The notes beneath the pieces were generated by a model, which did no database searches, was not told the origin of the DNA, and saw only the letters and a program-made list of their open reading frames with translations. Shown in pieces: positions 149 to 8,241 of a stretch of 8,409 nt of DNA (within the stretch, counting starts at the first letter, position 1; every line of letters starts with the position of its first letter). The stretch comes from an uncultured archaeon (GTDB lineage Archaea > Asgardarchaeota > Lokiarchaeia > Sigyniarchaeales > Promethearchaeaceae). Made by a program: the position numbers and the translations under genes. The stretch lies in the NCBI GenBank assembly GCA_964426185.1, contig CAYRPF010000106.1, forward strand, positions 1-8,409. Reading direction: 5' to 3'.

Positions 149-622
149 CTAATTCATATAAATCGCAATAGAACCCTCAGATTCGGCGATTTCCACCCGC
201 AGTTTATAATTTTCAAAATTTTTTTTTAATTGCATGTAAACGTATTCTGCTAGTAATTCTGCTGTTGTCGCTGAAATTGGAAGTAATCGCGTATCAATTT
301 TGGGAAAAACGTAATGTTTTCCATTAAATCGGACATCAATTTCATCTGAATCGTTCGTAGGAGTTTTCAGTTCAATTATTTGAATATTTTCGCTTTTTGC
401 GGGAAGTAATACGGCATGATCCAACTTAGAAATAATCTCTTGAAGTTTAGATTTTATGTGATAAAAATCAATAACGAAAAAGTTTTCATCAAGTTCACCA
501 GTTAATTCCACTGAAACGGAATAATTGTGCCCATGTAATCGTGAACATTTATCATGTTGATAGAGAAAATGGGAAGCTGAAAATTTTAAACGAGGATCAG
601 AGATTCTCACTGTAAATGGCAT
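149..622 (-). CDS. queD: 6-carboxy-5,6,7,8-tetrahydropterin synthase (QueD, PTPS/T-fold family)
   Basis: Contains FSASH, the QueD signature CxxxHGH (CSRLHGHNY), LDH, TTAELLAEY and a C-terminal AESEGSIA. It lies next to queC and queE. The ORF track starts at GTG 637, but I prefer ATG 622 (MPFTVRI) because AGGTGA at 639-634 is a Shine-Dalgarno-like sequence 11 nt upstream and contains that GTG. Confidence 0.92.
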   Translation of the reverse strand: MPFTVRISDPRLKFSASHFLYQHDKCSRLHGHNYSVSVELTGELDENFFVIDFYHIKSKLQEIISKLDHAVLLPAKSENIQIIELKTPTNDSDEIDVRFNGKHYVFPKIDTRLLPISATTAELLAEYVYMQLKKNFENYKLRVEIAESEGSIAIYMN

Positions 623-633
623 TTTTTTTGATT

Positions 634-639
634 TCACCT
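634..639 (-). promoter_or_regulatory. Shine-Dalgarno-like AGGTGA for queD
   Basis: The minus strand reads GAAAGGTGA-aatcaaaaaaa-ATG. GGTGA pairs with the 16S rRNA 3' end and is common in archaea. Confidence 0.5.
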
Positions 640-684: not shown

Positions 685-1380
685 TTATTTTGAGTTTGGC
701 TCATAAGGAATAGGATCTACTGCATTATTGGCAGCAAATGCTTTTAATCGCTCATCACAACTCCCACATTGACCACAAGCCAATTCTCCACCTTGATAAC
801 ATGTCCACGTTAATGAATAATCTACATTCATTTCCAAACCTTCTTTTACAATATCTGCCTTAGAAAAATGCAAATACGGGGCTTCTAATTTTATCGGCCA
901 ATAATGACAGAGATTCGCAACTTGTTGCATGGCTGAAACAAACTCGGGACGACAATCGGGATAAATAGCATGATCGCCTCCGTGTGCTCCATAATATATC
1001 GCTTCTGCGCGAATTGAAATGGCATATGCAAGAGCTAAACTAAGAAGAATCATATTACGGTTTGGAACAACAGTATCCATCATTGAAATATCATCGTATT
1101 CTCCATGCGGGATTTCGGTATCGGAAGTAAGTGCATTTGGGCCAAAGATTCCCTCAGAGGTTAAATTGTCCAATGAAAGAATTTTATGGGGAAGATGGAA
1201 TTTTTCACAATTTTTTGCAGCATATTGAACCTCCTTTACATGTTTTTGACCGTATCTAAAGGTTAAACAATATATTTCTTTCTTTTCTTTGAGAAGACGG
1301 TATAAAAGTGTGGTAGAATCAAGACCTCCGGAAAGAATTAGAACAACACGATTCTGAACGAATGAATTTTGCTCCGACAT
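685..1380 (-). CDS. queC: 7-cyano-7-deazaguanine (preQ0) synthase QueC
   Basis: PP-loop SGGLDS, YGQKH..E, VPNRNMILLS, YPDCRPEF and the Zn site TWTCY...CGQCGSC..R. Start moved from TTG 1485 to ATG 1380 (MSEQNSF, 231 aa). The extra 35 codons are AT-rich spacer-like sequence, and QueC normally begins shortly before the PP-loop strand. Confidence 0.96.
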   Translation of the reverse strand: MSEQNSFVQNRVVLILSGGLDSTTLLYRLLKEKKEIYCLTFRYGQKHVKEVQYAAKNCEKFHLPHKILSLDNLTSEGIFGPNALTSDTEIPHGEYDDISMMDTVVPNRNMILLSLALAYAISIRAEAIYYGAHGGDHAIYPDCRPEFVSAMQQVANLCHYWPIKLEAPYLHFSKADIVKEGLEMNVDYSLTWTCYQGGELACGQCGSCDERLKAFAANNAVDPIPYEPNSK

Positions 1381-1486: not shown

Positions 1487-2077
1487 TTACTTTAGATGAT
1501 ATATTCGATGAAGTTGAACTCCTAATCTGAGATTTGGATGACTCATGGTTAAATCGTAGCATTTCTTAACTGAATAGTCAAAATCGGCGTTATTAGGCTG
1601 CAACCAAATAGGTATATTTCCCAACCATTTAAGAGGGATGACATCCAAAGTAAAATCTCGATCTACCACATATTTCAACTCATTCGGTTGACAATTAATC
1701 TCATAATTGACCGAGGGTTTAGGTGAACAGACAATCCAATCTACTCCTTCATTTCCCTTGAAAACGGCATTTGTTCCATTAGTTTCGATAGCTATTTGAA
1801 GTTTTTGATTAAAACGATCCATTTGATGGATTTTTTTACAGAGTGAGGTTATTTCATAAAGTGTAGGCTCTCCACCAGTGAGAATTATATATGGATAATG
1901 AATTTGTTTTAAAATTTCATCTTCAGTCATAAAAATTCCATCACTCCAAGATTCTTTGGTATCACACCAAGAACAACGGAGATTACAACCTGCAAAGCGA
2001 ATAAAGGTACAAGGAATTCCCAACCAACTCCCTTCCCCTTGAATAGAATCAAAAATCTCACAGATGGGATAATTCAC
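1487..2077 (-). CDS. queE: 7-carboxy-7-deazaguanine synthase QueE (radical SAM)
   Basis: EIFDSIQGEG, FIRFAGCNLRCSWCDT (CxxxCxxC), LTGGEP, IETNGT, VCSPK, LQP and the C-terminal LGVQLH are all typical of QueE. GTG start, 196 aa. Confidence 0.95.
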   Translation of the reverse strand: MNYPICEIFDSIQGEGSWLGIPCTFIRFAGCNLRCSWCDTKESWSDGIFMTEDEILKQIHYPYIILTGGEPTLYEITSLCKKIHQMDRFNQKLQIAIETNGTNAVFKGNEGVDWIVCSPKPSVNYEINCQPNELKYVVDRDFTLDVIPLKWLGNIPIWLQPNNADFDYSVKKCYDLTMSHPNLRLGVQLHRIYHLK

Positions 2078-2118: not shown

Positions 2119-5100
2119 TTATTTTGGATGCGGATTATTTTTTTTTGCCGCCTCTCGCTCTCGTTTACGCTCTATACGACGTTCCTTGCGCTCTTCCCTT
2201 TTTGATCTACGTTTAGCCTTTTTTTCTTGCTTCTTTTCCCAGCGCTCGATTTCTTTTGGTTTTTCTAATTTGTAGCGAGTATAGCCATATTTGTTATATA
2301 TAATATCTAAAGTATAAACATACATAATTGTGAGGTAGGACGTGTTCAAGTCGTTTATAATGAGTGTTTGGGTCATACCGCCAACCCACAGAAAGAGAGG
2401 CACTGCGATTCCAACTGTTATAATCATATTTACCCCGTAAATCCATCCAAATAAGGCACCCACAAAACCGCCGATTAAAGCATTAGTTGCCCACATGATA
2501 TATTGCATAACCCGAAATATCTTGTTCACGTTGGACTGTTTAATGAATAAATCAACTGTGTTGGTTACGATCATGCGAATTGATCGAAGTAATGCCAGAC
2601 TGTATGGTCGATTTTCTATAACAATGGCGGGCATGGTAAACATGTTCATATACATCCACAATCTTTCAATCAGGGGGGCTTTTTTCTTCTTTCCCTTAAC
2701 TTTCTTGGTTTTATCAAAAGATTGTGGGTCGACCGGCTTGACCTTGGCAGCTAATTCCATGGCTTCTTTGGGTGTTTTTGGGTGATAATCTCCCTTTAGA
2801 AACTTAGTCACAAATTGTATCATATGAATAATGGTTGAAGTGAAGGCATATCCCATTAACCCCCACCATCTTCTGCGGAGAACACGAAAACTTTTTCGAT
2901 ATGATAAAGAACCACCCCGGTACCAGTGATGAATCATCAGTTGTTTCATCCCTAAAGTTGAATAGAAGACTATGTAGATTAAGAACACAAATAAAGCCGT
3001 AAATCCGATAAATAAATAAGTATCGCTGATTCCCAACTCGGAAACTTTCTGATATATCACGGTAGGACCATTTTTTTCAATTTTAAAGAAAAATTTCCAA
3101 GCAGTTAATCCATAAAAGAACGAAAGCAGATTAACCAGGAAAGTTTGGAAGAATTGAGGGATCAGCATCTGCTTTTCTTTAACTACCACCAAGCAAGACA
3201 TTTTAAGAAATTTGCTAGCCAATTTGAATTTACGGCGCCAAATGGTTAAGAAAAGTATAGAAGGTATAATCAAGACTAAAAATACCCAATTATAATTCTG
3301 CCCGTTGTACTCAAATTCCACATAGCGGTAAAGGATATAGTAGAGAGCCACTTGCACAAAAAGAACCAAATACATAATAACCATGGCAATTTCGGCAAAA
3401 ACACGGACGATAAAATACGCTGCAAGCAAGCTGACTATGTATATCCCTACAATTACAAGTATACTTGTTAGAGAATATTTTCCCAAGATTTTTGACATAC
3501 CTTCGAGTTGATCGAGATTTACACCAGCATATTTCACCGTCACATCCACACCGATTACATAGAGACTCCAGATTCCGATAGCGAAAAATACTATAAATAA
3601 AACTGCAAGTATGCCTTCACTAATGCGGTGCATTCGACCAAAATATTCAAAGCCTTCTAGATCAAAGGGAGGTGATTCACGGTATAATTCTTTATATTTT
3701 TTCACCCGTCGGGCTTTTAATTGCTTCTTTTTCTCAATTAACTCTTGTTTTTGAAGTCGTTTCCATTCTTTCTTTTCAGTGCGAGATTTGAATTTTTCCA
3801 TTCGTTTTTTCAGCAAACTGCTCTTCTTTGGATCCAATTCAGCCAACAATGAAAACAATTCTGCATTTTGAGTTTTTTTGTAAAAACGAGTCAATTTTGA
3901 GAAAATGTCTTCTTGAAATGCAGGATTTTTATTCCATATTGTTTTTAATACTAAAGTAATGGGATGAATAGCCATTTCATCATTAAATCTTATAATGTTA
4001 TAACACATATTCAGTACATCATTTGTTCGATCAGGAAAATTTCGTTCTAATTCTGCCAGATTACTAGATAGCATAATTCGAACATCTTCGTTTGAATCAA
4101 ACGCCAATCGTTGGAAACTGTAGAACACTTGGTTATTTTCTGCAAATGGTTCGGGATTTGTAAATAAGACTTGTAAAATCATTTTCCCCGCATCTTTTCT
4201 AACCGCTGGATTTCGGTCTGAGATAAGTTTAAAGATAATATCAAAATAATCCATAAATTCATTCGGATCGGATTTGAATATCGCCATAAAAACTCCATGA
4301 GTGGTAGAGCGAATTTCTGAATTATCGGATGACGCTAATTTCAGTAGAGTGGGAATGACAATTTGCATTCTGATGCCCTTTTGGTGATATTCAAGCAACT
4401 TTTGAACCAATTTTTTATGAACTTCCACCACATTAGTATTGGCAAAAGAGCGAATATCTTGTTGGAATCGAATTTTTCGGATCTCAAATTTATCTGCATA
4501 TGCAAAATAGGTATTAAGAGCTTTCACAGCGACAGTTGGCTCTGGATCTCGCACTGCTTGCACTATAAGTTTCAAACACAAAGGCAAATTAACTTGAATA
4601 AGTGCCAAAGAGCTAATTTCTTCCACGATAGCCTTTTTAACCACTGGAGGTAAGTTTGGATTATATAAATTTACAAAATGGCTGTAAATAAGAGATTTGA
4701 TGTGTTTATAACTCCTTTTATTCTCGCGTCGGGAGACGGGAGGAAATTTTCGAAGAAAATAGCCTAAAACTTCTAAGGCTTTGGCTTTCACATATTCATC
4801 GCTACTTGAAATTTGATGTTCAACAATATGCAATTCTTTCCGAAAGTCTCCTTCGATAGGCAAATTCATCAACACGTTCATGGCTGTAATTTTCGTACGG
4901 CTATCTTTGGAAGTTTGAATGGTATCTAAAATTAGTGATTGGATGATTTTTTCTTTATTTGTAGTTTCAATCAATCTTTTAAGAGCTTCTGCAATTCCTT
5001 CTTGCACCAATGGTTCTTTAGAATGCATATAGCGATAAATCAACGGTTTAAACGTTTCTTCATATGGATTTACTTTTTCGAATTGTTTGGTAGAATAATT

Positions 5101-8100
5101 CAAAATTTTCTGAGTTTTAAATCCTTTCCGGGTTTGTTCTCCGATTAAAGTAGCAAATAAAATAAGTGTCTGCTTAATTGTGTTAACGGATAAACTTAGA
5201 TGGAGAGAAAGTAAATTATGAAGTATTTCAAAGATTTCTCCAAAAAAGCCTTTGTCTATGTTAAATAAGATGATCATATGTCTAACAAGAATATTCTGAA
5301 TATTCGGAGTTAATTTGGCGTAATTTTCCTTTAATTTAAACATAATATTATCGATATTAATATCTGGATATCCCTTGCGTAATTTTCTCAATTTTTCTTG
5401 TAGAATTCTGAAATAAACATCCAATATCTTGGCAAGCGCAACTTCTCCTCCTTCAGCATAATGTGATTCCAAGTAAACAAATAACTCATCATATTTGGCA
5501 GGAGCATGATATAGTATTTCAGCTAATAATGCTAATGTGGTCCCAAATACCGTGAGACTTTCAAAATTCTCCCGAAATCCAAAGAAAGTAGTTTTTTCAT
5601 CTCGTAATTCCACAATCTGTTCATATTTTAATGTTTCCTCTATCTGTTCCGCTTGGGATATTAAAATTGGAATTAAGGAAATTTCATCTAAGTAAGGTGT
5701 AATTTTATCAGTAATTTGAGTGAGAATATTCAGTAAATCAATTCTTACGATTGTTGTAAGGGGTGTTTTTAATAAAATTGCAATATCGCCCAACAGATAA
5801 TGAGGAGAATCACTTTCAATAAAGAAACGATGAACTAGATGACGTAGTTCTTTGATATCATCAATTAACAATGGACTAAATAGATGTTGAAAATAATTCT
5901 GACTATAAATGTCCTTCCGAGTTTGGGCAATTACGATTAAAGATGATAAAGTGGCTTGTCGTATATCAAGACTGGATGAATTGACAAACAATTTAAAATA
6001 TGGATATAAATATTTTTTGAACAAATCTTCTGAAATTTGACTGCTCAAACTGCCCAAAGCTACAGCTGCATCGGCTTTATACTGCAGATGTGATGATTTT
6101 AGATACTTTTCAATATAAGCAAAGAAGTTCTCAAACCATTCAGGCTTTATATTGGTTAATTTAACCACAATTCCTAATTTTTGACGCACAATTTCATCGT
6201 CTTTATCGGGAATTTCATTAAATGTGCCCATTAAAGTAGAGATTAAAGCAGGGACAGCCATAGCATAATTTCCAAAAGTTTGAAGTGTAGCAATTAACAT
6301 CTGGGTGTTTTTATGCTTAACCAGCGAAAGAAAAATATCTTCCAAATCCTTACTTTGAGGAGCAAATTTGCTTGGGACGTTGGCAATTACTTTTAATGCG
6401 CCGAAGATAACCTGAGGTTTAGAATTTGAAGATAAAAGGGGATGAATGAATTTCCACACTGCTTTGTGCTCTTGTTTTTCATATAAAGCAACGATATGAA
6501 AAACCGTTTCATAGCCTTGATTTGAAAGATTTTTTTTAATCAACTCTCCACACAAATCCAAAGGATTCAAGATATTTCGCTTTACTATTTGCCGTAAAAC
6601 ATTTCGAGCCTGTTTTATTTTGGATTTTTCTTTTGATTCTAATAGTTCTGTTAGAGTTGTAATCAAAGTTTTCTTATCAAGTTTAATGATAATTTCATTA
6701 ATCTCTCCTTTAAGTATGCGGGTAATCTTAGGGTTTTCATCCGACAACAATTCACCTATAATTTCGGAAATATGTTTAGCTGTTTGGCGTGGGAGTGAAT
6801 CTTTCATGTGGACGTATTTTATTACGGTGTCGGCTACTAAAATTCGCATTTCAAAATTCTCATGACGAGAATATTTTTTCAAAGTTTCAAAATCATTCGA
6901 TATGATTGCTCGATTCAATACCCATTCATCTGCATTTTGCGGAATACTTTTATCTAAAAAGAGAAAATGGACTAAAAAGTATATATTTAAAATTTTTTGA
7001 ATGAGAATCGCAAATCCAAATGACCGATAAATTAATTCACGGTCAGTTGTCCGAGAGAAGTCTAAATTCAAACCGATAAAATGGAGATTATCATCAGGAA
7101 AGAAATCAGGATATTTATACATCGCATTTATAAAAATAGAAAAGGCAATTCCAGTAATGATATAGGCGGCGAATAGTACCATTTTTGAGGTATTTAAGGG
7201 TTCTTTACTGAGGAATTTCTTATAGAATCCAAAAAGTCCGAATAAACAAGTAGTTAAGATGAAACCCAAAAAATCCAACGGAAACAGTATAAAGAACATC
7301 TGAATTTGTTCGATTTCTTCCGCACTAATATTTGGATTTATCTGAGCCAAAAAGGTAATTATTTCCTCAACTGCACCCGAACGAGTAACAGAAGGATTAG
7401 ACACACTTTCTGGAATATTTCCCCAAAAAATTGGAAGATAATCCAAAGAAAAACTAATCAAAGAATATACGGTTGAAATAATACTAAGAATTGCTATAAT
7501 ATAGATAATCAACATTTGAGGCTCTTTTTTTAAAATCACGCGTTGAGCGCGATAGATTGCGTGAGCCGTTCCGTTATAAGTATAATAACTTAAATAAAAC
7601 ATGGGTCCTAATAAGAGCCAAACCAAGAAAATTATCCCCACAGCCCATCCTTCAGTTAAATTTGATGGAATGTTCCAATAGTTCAAAGCAATGTAAGAAG
7701 TAACCAATGGTGCGGCTAATACAATCAAGAAAAATAAAAACATAGCCGCGAGTGAATTCCAAGGTGTTTCAAATCGATCGATAAATTTCGTCTCCAGAGC
7801 TTGCTGGATTTCGGTCGCGCCTTCTTGTGAAGGTTTGGAAAGAAGATAATATTCATAAATTGGATAAAAAAAAGAAAAGGTAGCAATTACAAAAAGAGTA
7901 ATAGGTAAAAAGTTCGGAAATTGAAAGGCTTTCACCATTTCTTCAGTCCAAATGGTATTTTCAACATCAGGTAAAATAAGAAGAGCATTTCTGGCAAAAA
8001 TGCTGGTAATCATTGCTAACACAAAAACTACTGCAAATGAAACCATTACAGAAAATGTCATGGCGCCAATAGTGTTTCGTCGTTTCTGCCATTTAGTATA

Positions 8101-8241
8101 GACTGGGGAAGTTTTTAGTTCTTGTTGTATAAAAACCCAACAACGTATCATAATAACCAATCCTATAAATGTAAATAGAAGGGTTAACCCGCTGTTTAAC
8201 AATCCGGCATAATCATAATTATTTTCAGTTTGTAACAACAT
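2119..8241 (-). CDS. Giant multidomain membrane protein: N-terminal ~9-TM domain + HEAT/ARM-repeat solenoid + C-terminal CTL/SLC44-like ~9-10-TM domain
   Basis: Uninterrupted 2040-codon ORF. ATG start is preceded by AAGGAAGC. Hydrophobic helices cluster at aa ~14-428 and ~1543-1980. The central region is helical with repeated L-x-x-[DS]-x-x-x-x-[VI]-R-like units. The CDS itself is near certain; the domain names come from motif recognition by eye. Confidence 0.9.
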   Translation of the reverse strand: MLLQTENNYDYAGLLNSGLTLLFTFIGLVIMIRCWVFIQQELKTSPVYTKWQKRRNTIGAMTFSVMVSFAVVFVLAMITSIFARNALLILPDVENTIWTEEMVKAFQFPNFLPITLFVIATFSFFYPIYEYYLLSKPSQEGATEIQQALETKFIDRFETPWNSLAAMFLFFLIVLAAPLVTSYIALNYWNIPSNLTEGWAVGIIFLVWLLLGPMFYLSYYTYNGTAHAIYRAQRVILKKEPQMLIIYIIAILSIISTVYSLISFSLDYLPIFWGNIPESVSNPSVTRSGAVEEIITFLAQINPNISAEEIEQIQMFFILFPLDFLGFILTTCLFGLFGFYKKFLSKEPLNTSKMVLFAAYIITGIAFSIFINAMYKYPDFFPDDNLHFIGLNLDFSRTTDRELIYRSFGFAILIQKILNIYFLVHFLFLDKSIPQNADEWVLNRAIISNDFETLKKYSRHENFEMRILVADTVIKYVHMKDSLPRQTAKHISEIIGELLSDENPKITRILKGEINEIIIKLDKKTLITTLTELLESKEKSKIKQARNVLRQIVKRNILNPLDLCGELIKKNLSNQGYETVFHIVALYEKQEHKAVWKFIHPLLSSNSKPQVIFGALKVIANVPSKFAPQSKDLEDIFLSLVKHKNTQMLIATLQTFGNYAMAVPALISTLMGTFNEIPDKDDEIVRQKLGIVVKLTNIKPEWFENFFAYIEKYLKSSHLQYKADAAVALGSLSSQISEDLFKKYLYPYFKLFVNSSSLDIRQATLSSLIVIAQTRKDIYSQNYFQHLFSPLLIDDIKELRHLVHRFFIESDSPHYLLGDIAILLKTPLTTIVRIDLLNILTQITDKITPYLDEISLIPILISQAEQIEETLKYEQIVELRDEKTTFFGFRENFESLTVFGTTLALLAEILYHAPAKYDELFVYLESHYAEGGEVALAKILDVYFRILQEKLRKLRKGYPDINIDNIMFKLKENYAKLTPNIQNILVRHMIILFNIDKGFFGEIFEILHNLLSLHLSLSVNTIKQTLILFATLIGEQTRKGFKTQKILNYSTKQFEKVNPYEETFKPLIYRYMHSKEPLVQEGIAEALKRLIETTNKEKIIQSLILDTIQTSKDSRTKITAMNVLMNLPIEGDFRKELHIVEHQISSSDEYVKAKALEVLGYFLRKFPPVSRRENKRSYKHIKSLIYSHFVNLYNPNLPPVVKKAIVEEISSLALIQVNLPLCLKLIVQAVRDPEPTVAVKALNTYFAYADKFEIRKIRFQQDIRSFANTNVVEVHKKLVQKLLEYHQKGIRMQIVIPTLLKLASSDNSEIRSTTHGVFMAIFKSDPNEFMDYFDIIFKLISDRNPAVRKDAGKMILQVLFTNPEPFAENNQVFYSFQRLAFDSNEDVRIMLSSNLAELERNFPDRTNDVLNMCYNIIRFNDEMAIHPITLVLKTIWNKNPAFQEDIFSKLTRFYKKTQNAELFSLLAELDPKKSSLLKKRMEKFKSRTEKKEWKRLQKQELIEKKKQLKARRVKKYKELYRESPPFDLEGFEYFGRMHRISEGILAVLFIVFFAIGIWSLYVIGVDVTVKYAGVNLDQLEGMSKILGKYSLTSILVIVGIYIVSLLAAYFIVRVFAEIAMVIMYLVLFVQVALYYILYRYVEFEYNGQNYNWVFLVLIIPSILFLTIWRRKFKLASKFLKMSCLVVVKEKQMLIPQFFQTFLVNLLSFFYGLTAWKFFFKIEKNGPTVIYQKVSELGISDTYLFIGFTALFVFLIYIVFYSTLGMKQLMIHHWYRGGSLSYRKSFRVLRRRWWGLMGYAFTSTIIHMIQFVTKFLKGDYHPKTPKEAMELAAKVKPVDPQSFDKTKKVKGKKKKAPLIERLWMYMNMFTMPAIVIENRPYSLALLRSIRMIVTNTVDLFIKQSNVNKIFRVMQYIMWATNALIGGFVGALFGWIYGVNMIITVGIAVPLFLWVGGMTQTLIINDLNTSYLTIMYVYTLDIIYNKYGYTRYKLEKPKEIERWEKKQEKKAKRRSKREERKERRIERKREREAAKKNNPHPK
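2300..3633 (-). other. Choline-transporter-like (CTL/SLC44/Pns1) membrane domain within the 2040-aa protein (aa ~1537-1980)
   Basis: About 9-10 hydrophobic helices. CTL-like motifs appear in the expected order: RRKFKLASKFLKMS...MLIP, HHWYR, SFRVLRRRWWG, IERLWMYMNMFTMPAIVIENRPYSLALLRSIRMI and a terminal SYLTIMYVY helix. Confidence 0.65.
3831..6940 (-). repeat. Protein-level HEAT/ARM-like repeat region within the 2040-aa protein (aa ~435-1470)
   Basis: Recurring units include LLSDENPKITRIL, LLSSNSKPQVIFGALKVI, YLKSSHLQYKADAAVALGSL, FVNSSSLDIRQATLSSL, YMHSKEPLVQEGIAEALKRL, ISSSDEYVKAKALEVLGYF, VRDPEPTVAVKAL, LASSDNSEIRST (aa 1302), LISDRNPAVRKDAG (aa 1339) and LAFDSNEDVRIMLSSNL (aa 1379). The last three are 37 and 40 aa apart, matching HEAT periodicity. 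The repeats are too diverged to see at the DNA level. Confidence 0.85.

Follow-up and report, generated by a model that had tools for sequence, protein, structure and literature searches.

The structures of CTL1 and Pns1 show a closed bowl with lipid-like densities, CTL1, PNS1 and CherI showed no choline transport, choline and ethanolamine transport is disputed for the CTL family itself, and even CTL1 and Pns1 share little of the hydrophilic pocket on M6/M8/M9/M10 (PMC13160678). In plants, CTL1 has a role in the trafficking of membrane proteins (PMC5746208), and a CTL/PNS1-like Asgard-eukaryote cluster was already listed in a 2026 preprint (10.64898/2026.10.28.762692). The gene described here, from a Lokiarchaeia metagenome-assembled genome (MAG), places a domain of this fold behind a 1480-amino-acid (aa) membrane-solenoid protein, an arrangement that sets it apart from CTL/SLC44/Pns1 proteins. 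The window, i.e. the whole stretch of DNA that was analysed, is the entire 8409-bp contig CAYRPF010000106.1 (assembly GCA_964426185.1; the source MAG is 3.26 Mb and 92% complete). The fused gene is one open frame on its minus strand (2119..8241, 2040 aa), whose product consists, from the N- to the C-terminus, of a 9-helix transmembrane (9TM) domain, about 1050 aa of HEAT repeats, a basic helix, a CTL-fold domain and a basic tail:

2119..8241, minus strand: fused gene, complete, 2040 aa and stop codon (full-length orthologues have 2037 and 2046 aa)
6952..8241, minus strand: 9TM membrane domain, aa 1-430, predicted N-out/C-in, followed in relatives by a HEAT or a leucine-rich repeat (LRR) solenoid
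3808..6951, minus strand: HEAT-type alpha-solenoid, predicted to be cytoplasmic, aa 431-1478 (aa ~850-1060 less certain)
3667..3807, minus strand: fusion linker, aa 1479-1525, a long basic helix with K/R at 20 of 47 aa
2287..3666, minus strand: CTL/SLC44/Pns1-fold membrane domain, aa 1526-1985
2122..2286, minus strand: basic tail, predicted to be cytoplasmic (the last 51 aa hold 24 K/R)

An earlier note on this DNA, made from the letters and their open frames, had read one frame encoding a membrane bundle, a HEAT array, a basic linker, a second membrane bundle and a basic tail, and the open frame, Pfam, hydropathy and structural models all bear this layout out. An NCBIfam scan of the fused protein gave no match. 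The first half (9TM-HEAT) is probably asCOG cog.002852, because the architecture (a membrane domain and then Adaptin_N-like HEAT repeats, in Lokiarchaeia) agrees and the same two genomes carry it (L. ossiferum and a Promethearchaeum-like genus, g6); the correspondence is by architecture, not by profile sequence, and the fusion differs in about 560 additional aa of linker, CTL domain and tail. For cog.002852 annotation was found, and no functional study. The earlier note knew of no characterised protein with such a double-anchored layout, which agrees with our search of the literature on Asgard CTL-like, DUF6159, SLC44 and Harpocratesius HEAT proteins: within its incomplete coverage, no description of the three-part fusion was found. 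The double-anchored architecture thus appears undescribed in the searchable literature, while both component families are already catalogued, though uncharacterised. LRRC8/VRAC and NOMPC also combine a polytopic membrane domain with a long cytoplasmic repeat solenoid, by analogy only: the 9TM model did not retrieve their folds, and neither has a second integral domain beyond its solenoid.

The host lineage of the fusion is the genus Ca. Harpocratesius (Lokiarchaeia). The earlier note had called for full-length homologues with the same domain order; these exist in FW102 (Ca. Harpocratesius repetitus; 2037 aa, 79% identity), a long-read Lokiarchaeia assembly (PMC8813620), and in GCA_054385595.1 (2046 aa, 67% identity). 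SRR15988961 carries a copy of the 2037-aa orthologue that differs at 3 residues, and the identical 2040-aa protein sits on a longer contig of GCA_054388175.1. The junctions near nt 3630-3830 and 6950, where the earlier note had suggested checking for a mis-assembly or a missed stop, are intact in these independent assemblies. Comparison of the fused orthologues showed saturated synonymous sites (proportion of synonymous differences, pS, 0.70-1.0) against a non-synonymous proportion (pN) of 0.08-0.31 in every region, including the linker, whose 47 aa are 55-68% identical among orthologues with neither gaps nor stops. The fusion is under purifying selection. Mis-assembly is very unlikely as its source, since the same fusion occurs in FW102 and in another MAG and its synonymous sites are saturated. 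An assembly or gene-calling error that merged two adjacent genes would have in its favour that the window is a single short MAG contig; the junction recurs, however, in at least four other records (GCA_054388175.1, SRR15988961, FW102 and GCA_054385595.1), and the divergent orthologues already refute such an error, the probability of which is negligible.

The fusion is a single, old event, derived and confined to the Harpocratesius lineage. All other close relatives of the first half are 1420-1660 aa long and lack the CTL domain; the aligned unfused relatives stop at a conserved basic motif near query aa 1452-1470, where the linker begins, and in their genomes the C-terminal domain is encoded on its own by one gene, mostly of 525-580 aa. 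L. ossiferum is among the relatives in which the two halves are separate genes. In the midpoint-rooted trees of both halves the fused copies form one lineage among unfused relatives, with a support of 99/98 for the CTL half and of 100/100 for the 9TM half, where one contig-truncated member is included. The 2037-aa length was met in one of 120 representatives drawn from 1.84 billion proteins, and a search for longer CTL fusions returned the three orthologues only (it missed a 1058-aa form from genome G143, hence it is not exhaustive). In neither the window's genome nor FW102 was a full CTL gene found apart from the fused copy. Unfused 9TM-HEAT paralogues accompany it in both, at least two in the window's genome (including G000:C5:51891-56285 and G000:C1:4294-7932, the latter equal to L105:3295-6933) and three in FW102. 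The double anchoring of the solenoid, as the earlier note had it, is a derived state of one lineage, and all other relatives found do without it. Weak second matches to the CTL profile were also seen in frames of about 300 aa that correspond to the C-terminal half only (G135:C1:1494625-1495230, G140:C260, G134:C277); these are possibly short DUF6159-type genes.

The C-terminal membrane domain was identified by its fold. Its model matches yeast Pns1 (9F63) with Z 25.4 (root mean square deviation, rmsd, 4.8; 378/422; chain range 77-525; VIA-align) and human CTL1 (7WWB) with Z 25.3 (311/333), at an identity of 10-13% only, and the top two Foldseek matches are 9F63 (E 5e-5) and 9QU3; PDB sequence searches with the domain returned nothing, and only structure comparison found its relatives. 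The CTL identity proposed in the earlier note is thereby substantiated. Like the SLC44 fold, the model has 10 transmembrane helices arranged in a bowl, and the likeness extends over nearly the whole chain, including the predicted cytoplasmic placement of both termini and three basic, K/R-rich amphipathic helices after M4, M6 and M8 (aa ~1669-1688, 1781-1789 and 1880-1893, assigned by position in the model). The large outer domain of CTL1 is absent here, as it is from Pns1, and a basic insert of about 40 aa between M7 and M8 distinguishes the domain from the CTL/SLC44/Pns1 proteins. PF04515 (Choline_transpo) stays below its gathering score of 26.9, with 19.3 bits for the whole protein (aa 1653-1959) and 22.3 for the domain alone; the unfused homologue L102 exceeds it with 40 bits, and the family is matched by 13 of the 24 homologues. 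DUF6159 (PF19656) does not match the query, and is matched by 10 of the 24 Asgard homologues (best E 1e-14); GPDPase_memb, also related to CTL, is matched by homologues as well.

Of the 400 Asgard genomes, no fewer than 114 have a CTL homologue, nearly always in one copy. Extended forms were noted beside the standard ones: the 1058-aa protein of G143 (L076:4872-8045) is longer by about six transmembrane helices at the N-terminus and four at the C-terminus, proteins of about 680 aa in family f4 have four extra C-terminal helices, and those of family f5 carry a zinc ribbon at the C-terminus (L102-L104 and L053/L054/L058/L059 hold the forms other than that of G143). Family f3, the largest of the order, has no CTL-like gene in 135 genomes, while the gene is single-copy in its sister families; a clean loss is probable.

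The N-terminal domain has nine hydrophobic segments (aa 14-429) in the hydropathy profile of the query, and AlphaFold modelled aa 1-450 as nine long membrane-type helices with a mean confidence (pLDDT) of 83.9 and a predicted TM-score (pTM) of 0.84. Across 34 homologues, loops 1/3/5/7 hold 4.0-6.2 K+R and mostly keep their length, while loops 2/4/6/8 hold 0.3-2.4 and vary in length. Because K+R concentrate in the odd-numbered loops, the domain is predicted to be N-out/C-in with the solenoid inside the cell, so that the nine helices, outer N-terminus and cytoplasmic solenoid of the earlier note gain the backing of these homologues. The inner loops and the core (Y126, E130, E150, W208, P213, G224, G338, F357 and Y360) are conserved, and the outer loops vary. 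Pfam has no family for the 9TM domain of the query, nor any that is consistent over 35 homologues; ESM Atlas features gave no match, and fold searches of PDB and the atlas found nothing significant (no Foldseek E<1e-3; atlas TM-score by query at most 0.30). The best structural match has Z 7.4 across just 77 residues, and the match to SERINC3 (Z 7.3, rmsd 6.4, 208 aligned) is weak and partial, with a Z at background level. The missing fold match does not prove a new fold.

Among the 153 other genomes of the order, the 9TM profile finds a match in 141, and two further families match it weakly. The domain precedes HEAT repeats in Lokiarchaeia and also in proteins with a Heimdallarchaeota label, and LRRs in those labelled Hermodarchaeota and Hodarchaeota/Hodarchaeales; HEAT or LRR repeats follow it in 18 of 20 scanned matches, the remaining two being short. 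That the LRR-carrying domain is truly homologous is shown by a profile comparison (probability 99.8, E 2.6e-28) and by motifs in common. Apparently, this is an undescribed, modular family of Asgard membrane-solenoid proteins. The LRR-fused proteins are P0083, P0088, P0091, P0100, P0105, P0107, P0111 and P0118. Two homologues, P0115 and P0072, are labelled Methanobacteriota/Euryarchaeota and Bathyarchaeota and may be mislabelled Asgard MAGs; given these labels, an Asgard-only range of the domain may hold but is not strictly shown.

Between the two membrane domains, Adaptin_N, HEAT, HEAT_2 and Cnd1 of Pfam score above cut-off within aa 493-1461 (Adaptin_N, PF01602, with 51 bits vs a cut-off of 37), and the family-averaged hydropathy profile has no segment above threshold within the repeat region. 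The predicted structures cover aa 1-450 and 1290 onward; aa 1290-1480 are modelled as stacked HEAT pairs, with pLDDT mostly >90, and match symplekin (Z 15.2), Cex1, PP2A-A and Pds5 (Z 13-15 for the four). The family profile searched against PDB matched PP2A-A (E 6e-21), CAND1 (7e-14), AP-1 beta (4e-13) and gamma-COP (5e-10) at different positions along the region, as well as AP-2 beta, and PP2A-A and CAND1 outscored AP-beta; an atlas search with aa 440-1478 found generic HEAT-like clusters only. Turn residues recur every 18-19 and 36-38 residues, clearly so in the C-terminal third and less strongly in the rest. Searched alone, aa 830-1080 gave no significant match, yet the full profile still aligns CAND1 there, and the solenoid is likely continuous through the whole region. 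The HEAT solenoid of about 1000 aa postulated by the earlier note thus holds for the parts supported by Pfam and by the stacked pairs, its middle fifth being less certain.

With PP2A-A, CAND1, AP-1/AP-2 beta, gamma-COP and symplekin the fusion shares a long HEAT alpha-solenoid (E 6e-21 to 5e-10; Z 12-15); these eukaryotic scaffolds are soluble, whereas the fusion is integral at both ends, and no single family stands out among them. The C-terminal hinge and appendage (Ig + TBP) of adaptins are not present, the basic helix and the CTL domain coming next and the unfused relatives stopping at the end of the solenoid, nor is there a protocoatomer-type N-terminal beta-propeller, the N-terminal domain being all-helical. 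Because appendage and propeller are both absent, the solenoid is best read as a generic HEAT scaffold and not as a specific adaptin.

We propose, with a probability of about one half, that the fused protein is a cytoplasmic scaffold tethered to a CTL-fold lipid- or ligand-binding protein in the single cell membrane, which it positions or regulates. The fusion has joined a Lokiarchaeia 9TM-HEAT protein to the one CTL/Pns1-fold protein found in the genome. In this proposal the 9TM domain would be a dedicated anchor for the repeat scaffold, and the solenoid would loop out from and back to the same membrane, because the charge bias places it on the cytoplasmic side at both membrane domains. It may bind cytoplasmic partner proteins in the manner of PP2A-A, CAND1 or adaptin trunks, and the fusion would keep this binding platform beside the CTL domain at a fixed 1:1 stoichiometry. 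The scaffold could thereby position or regulate the CTL protein, which would bind a lipid or another ligand and help to organise the membrane. Choline import is probably not its role: the transporter function that the earlier note had entertained for the C-terminal domain is doubtful, CTL1, PNS1 and CherI having shown no choline transport (PMC13160678). In favour of the scaffold proposal, the 9TM domain can carry either a HEAT or an LRR solenoid, and PP2A-A, CAND1, AP-1/2 beta and gamma-COP match the solenoid about equally. Further points for it are the divergent fused orthologues with their low pN, the placement of the fused copies in both trees, the common end point of the unfused relatives, the lack of another full CTL gene in the two genomes, the conserved inner loops and core of the 9TM domain, the lipid-like densities in the CTL structures and the trafficking role of CTL1 in plants.

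Several observations weigh against it. A short 9TM-HEAT paralogue is present in 123 of the 135 f3 genomes and CTL in none; many other Asgard families have CTL, with the 9TM domain not detected; and among the relatives examined the two genes are never in one operon, the parent genes lying about 65 kb (G142) or 39 kb (G132) apart and megabases apart in L. ossiferum. The linker is modelled as one 34-residue basic helix flanked by low-confidence hinges, and the pTM of 0.65 of the HEAT-linker-CTL model together with these hinges suggests a loosely tethered CTL domain. Since the halves are not co-distributed across Asgard, an ancient partnership between them is weakened; as the parents share neither distribution nor operon, any partnership is at most specific to families f1/f2, or began with the fusion. 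The same lack of co-distribution speaks for a passive event, in which a rearrangement joined unrelated genes and the product persists because neither half is dispensable and their topologies are compatible, each half working by itself. The short distances in G142 and G132 would have eased an accidental join, the Asgard CTL bears other extensions too (the 1058-aa form, the ~680-aa proteins and the zinc ribbons), and Asgard proteins often show domain shuffling limited to single lineages (10.1101/2020.10.19.343400). That the join outlived synonymous saturation in three lineages, with a linker free of stops and length changes, speaks against a passive event, and families f1/f2 contain both the clade of long 9TM-HEAT proteins and the nearest CTL clade (though, being one lineage, not independently). 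We regard a passive fusion as a minor but serious possibility. Somewhat less probable, in our estimate, is a true partnership in which the 9TM domain is an undescribed, Asgard-specific active fold and the adaptin-like, double-anchored solenoid links CTL to membrane sorting or shaping; if true, it would be a prokaryotic counterpart of the trafficking role of the plant CTL1 and a first handle on CTL/SLC44 function.

For none of the arch, tether and spring mechanisms that the earlier note had floated was positive evidence found. A tether between two membranes is disfavoured, Lokiarchaeia cells having a single membrane and almost no internal compartments (PMC9834061). A membrane-shaping arch, i.e. 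a curved solenoid fixed at both ends that would act like a coat made of one chain and bend or stabilise the membrane where it protrudes or forms a neck, is doubtful. The two anchors are predicted to lie on one face of the membrane, the profile matches include adaptin-beta and gamma-COP, the conserved basic motif that ends the unfused relatives could serve as a second, peripheral anchor, and cells of Lokiarchaeia have protrusions and constrictions, with weak densities at their necks (PMC9834061); however, the HEAT matches are generic, beta-propeller, appendage and small GTPase partner are neither present nor adjacent, the model has flexible hinges around the linker, and L. ossiferum forms protrusions with unfused genes. 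Slightly less probable again is a mechanical or sensory relay, in which the 9TM domain would itself be a receptor, a channel or a scramblase and the solenoid would gate CTL by working as a spring or an allosteric rod, for which the ankyrin springs of NOMPC and the LRR domains of LRRC8 provide analogues. Nine helices with conserved core residues exceed the needs of a simple anchor, the LRR-fused versions recall LRRC8 in outline, and SERINC3 gives a weak, partial fold match; against this, no significant fold match to a channel or transporter was obtained, the SERINC Z lies within background, the outer loops are not conserved, CTL has no known transport path to gate, and most family members lack a second membrane domain.

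The function of CTL/SLC44 proteins has been an open question since choline transport was disputed (PMC13160678), and the fusion names a candidate partner, a HEAT scaffold, from the closest relatives of eukaryotes. The fusion is found in one lineage only, both halves had been catalogued before, and its function is predicted. The two Lokiarchaeia in culture seem to have these genes unfused, which makes the partnership idea testable, and the 9TM module, bearing HEAT or LRR solenoids and devoid of a fold match, is now defined across several Asgard groups.

Two neighbourhoods of the short 9TM-HEAT paralogues were recorded. In families f3/f4, a paralogue of 1115-1275 aa (L089, L091, L092, L093, L094) lies 1-2 genes from the MCM helicase; a membrane-bound HEAT protein next to MCM may point to a tie between chromosome and membrane, or the order could be plain synteny. 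Members of another clade (1176-1289 aa) follow a DUF4332/helix-hairpin-helix gene on the same strand after a gap of a few bases and probably form an operon with it (L105:2510-3289, L069, L071, L075, L090, L095-L100; L105 has C-terminal tetratricopeptide repeats).

Downstream of the fused gene, the window carries three genes of the preQ0 pathway, the first of which starts 41 bp past the stop codon:

1487-2077, minus strand: queE-like radical SAM gene, preQ0 pathway
685-1380, minus strand: queC, preQ0 pathway
149-637, minus strand: queD, preQ0 pathway

A functional tie to queE/C/D was considered and rejected: no examined unfused relative has these genes adjacent, and because SRR15988961 keeps queE alone after the fused gene, their position probably reflects local synteny and not a shared function.

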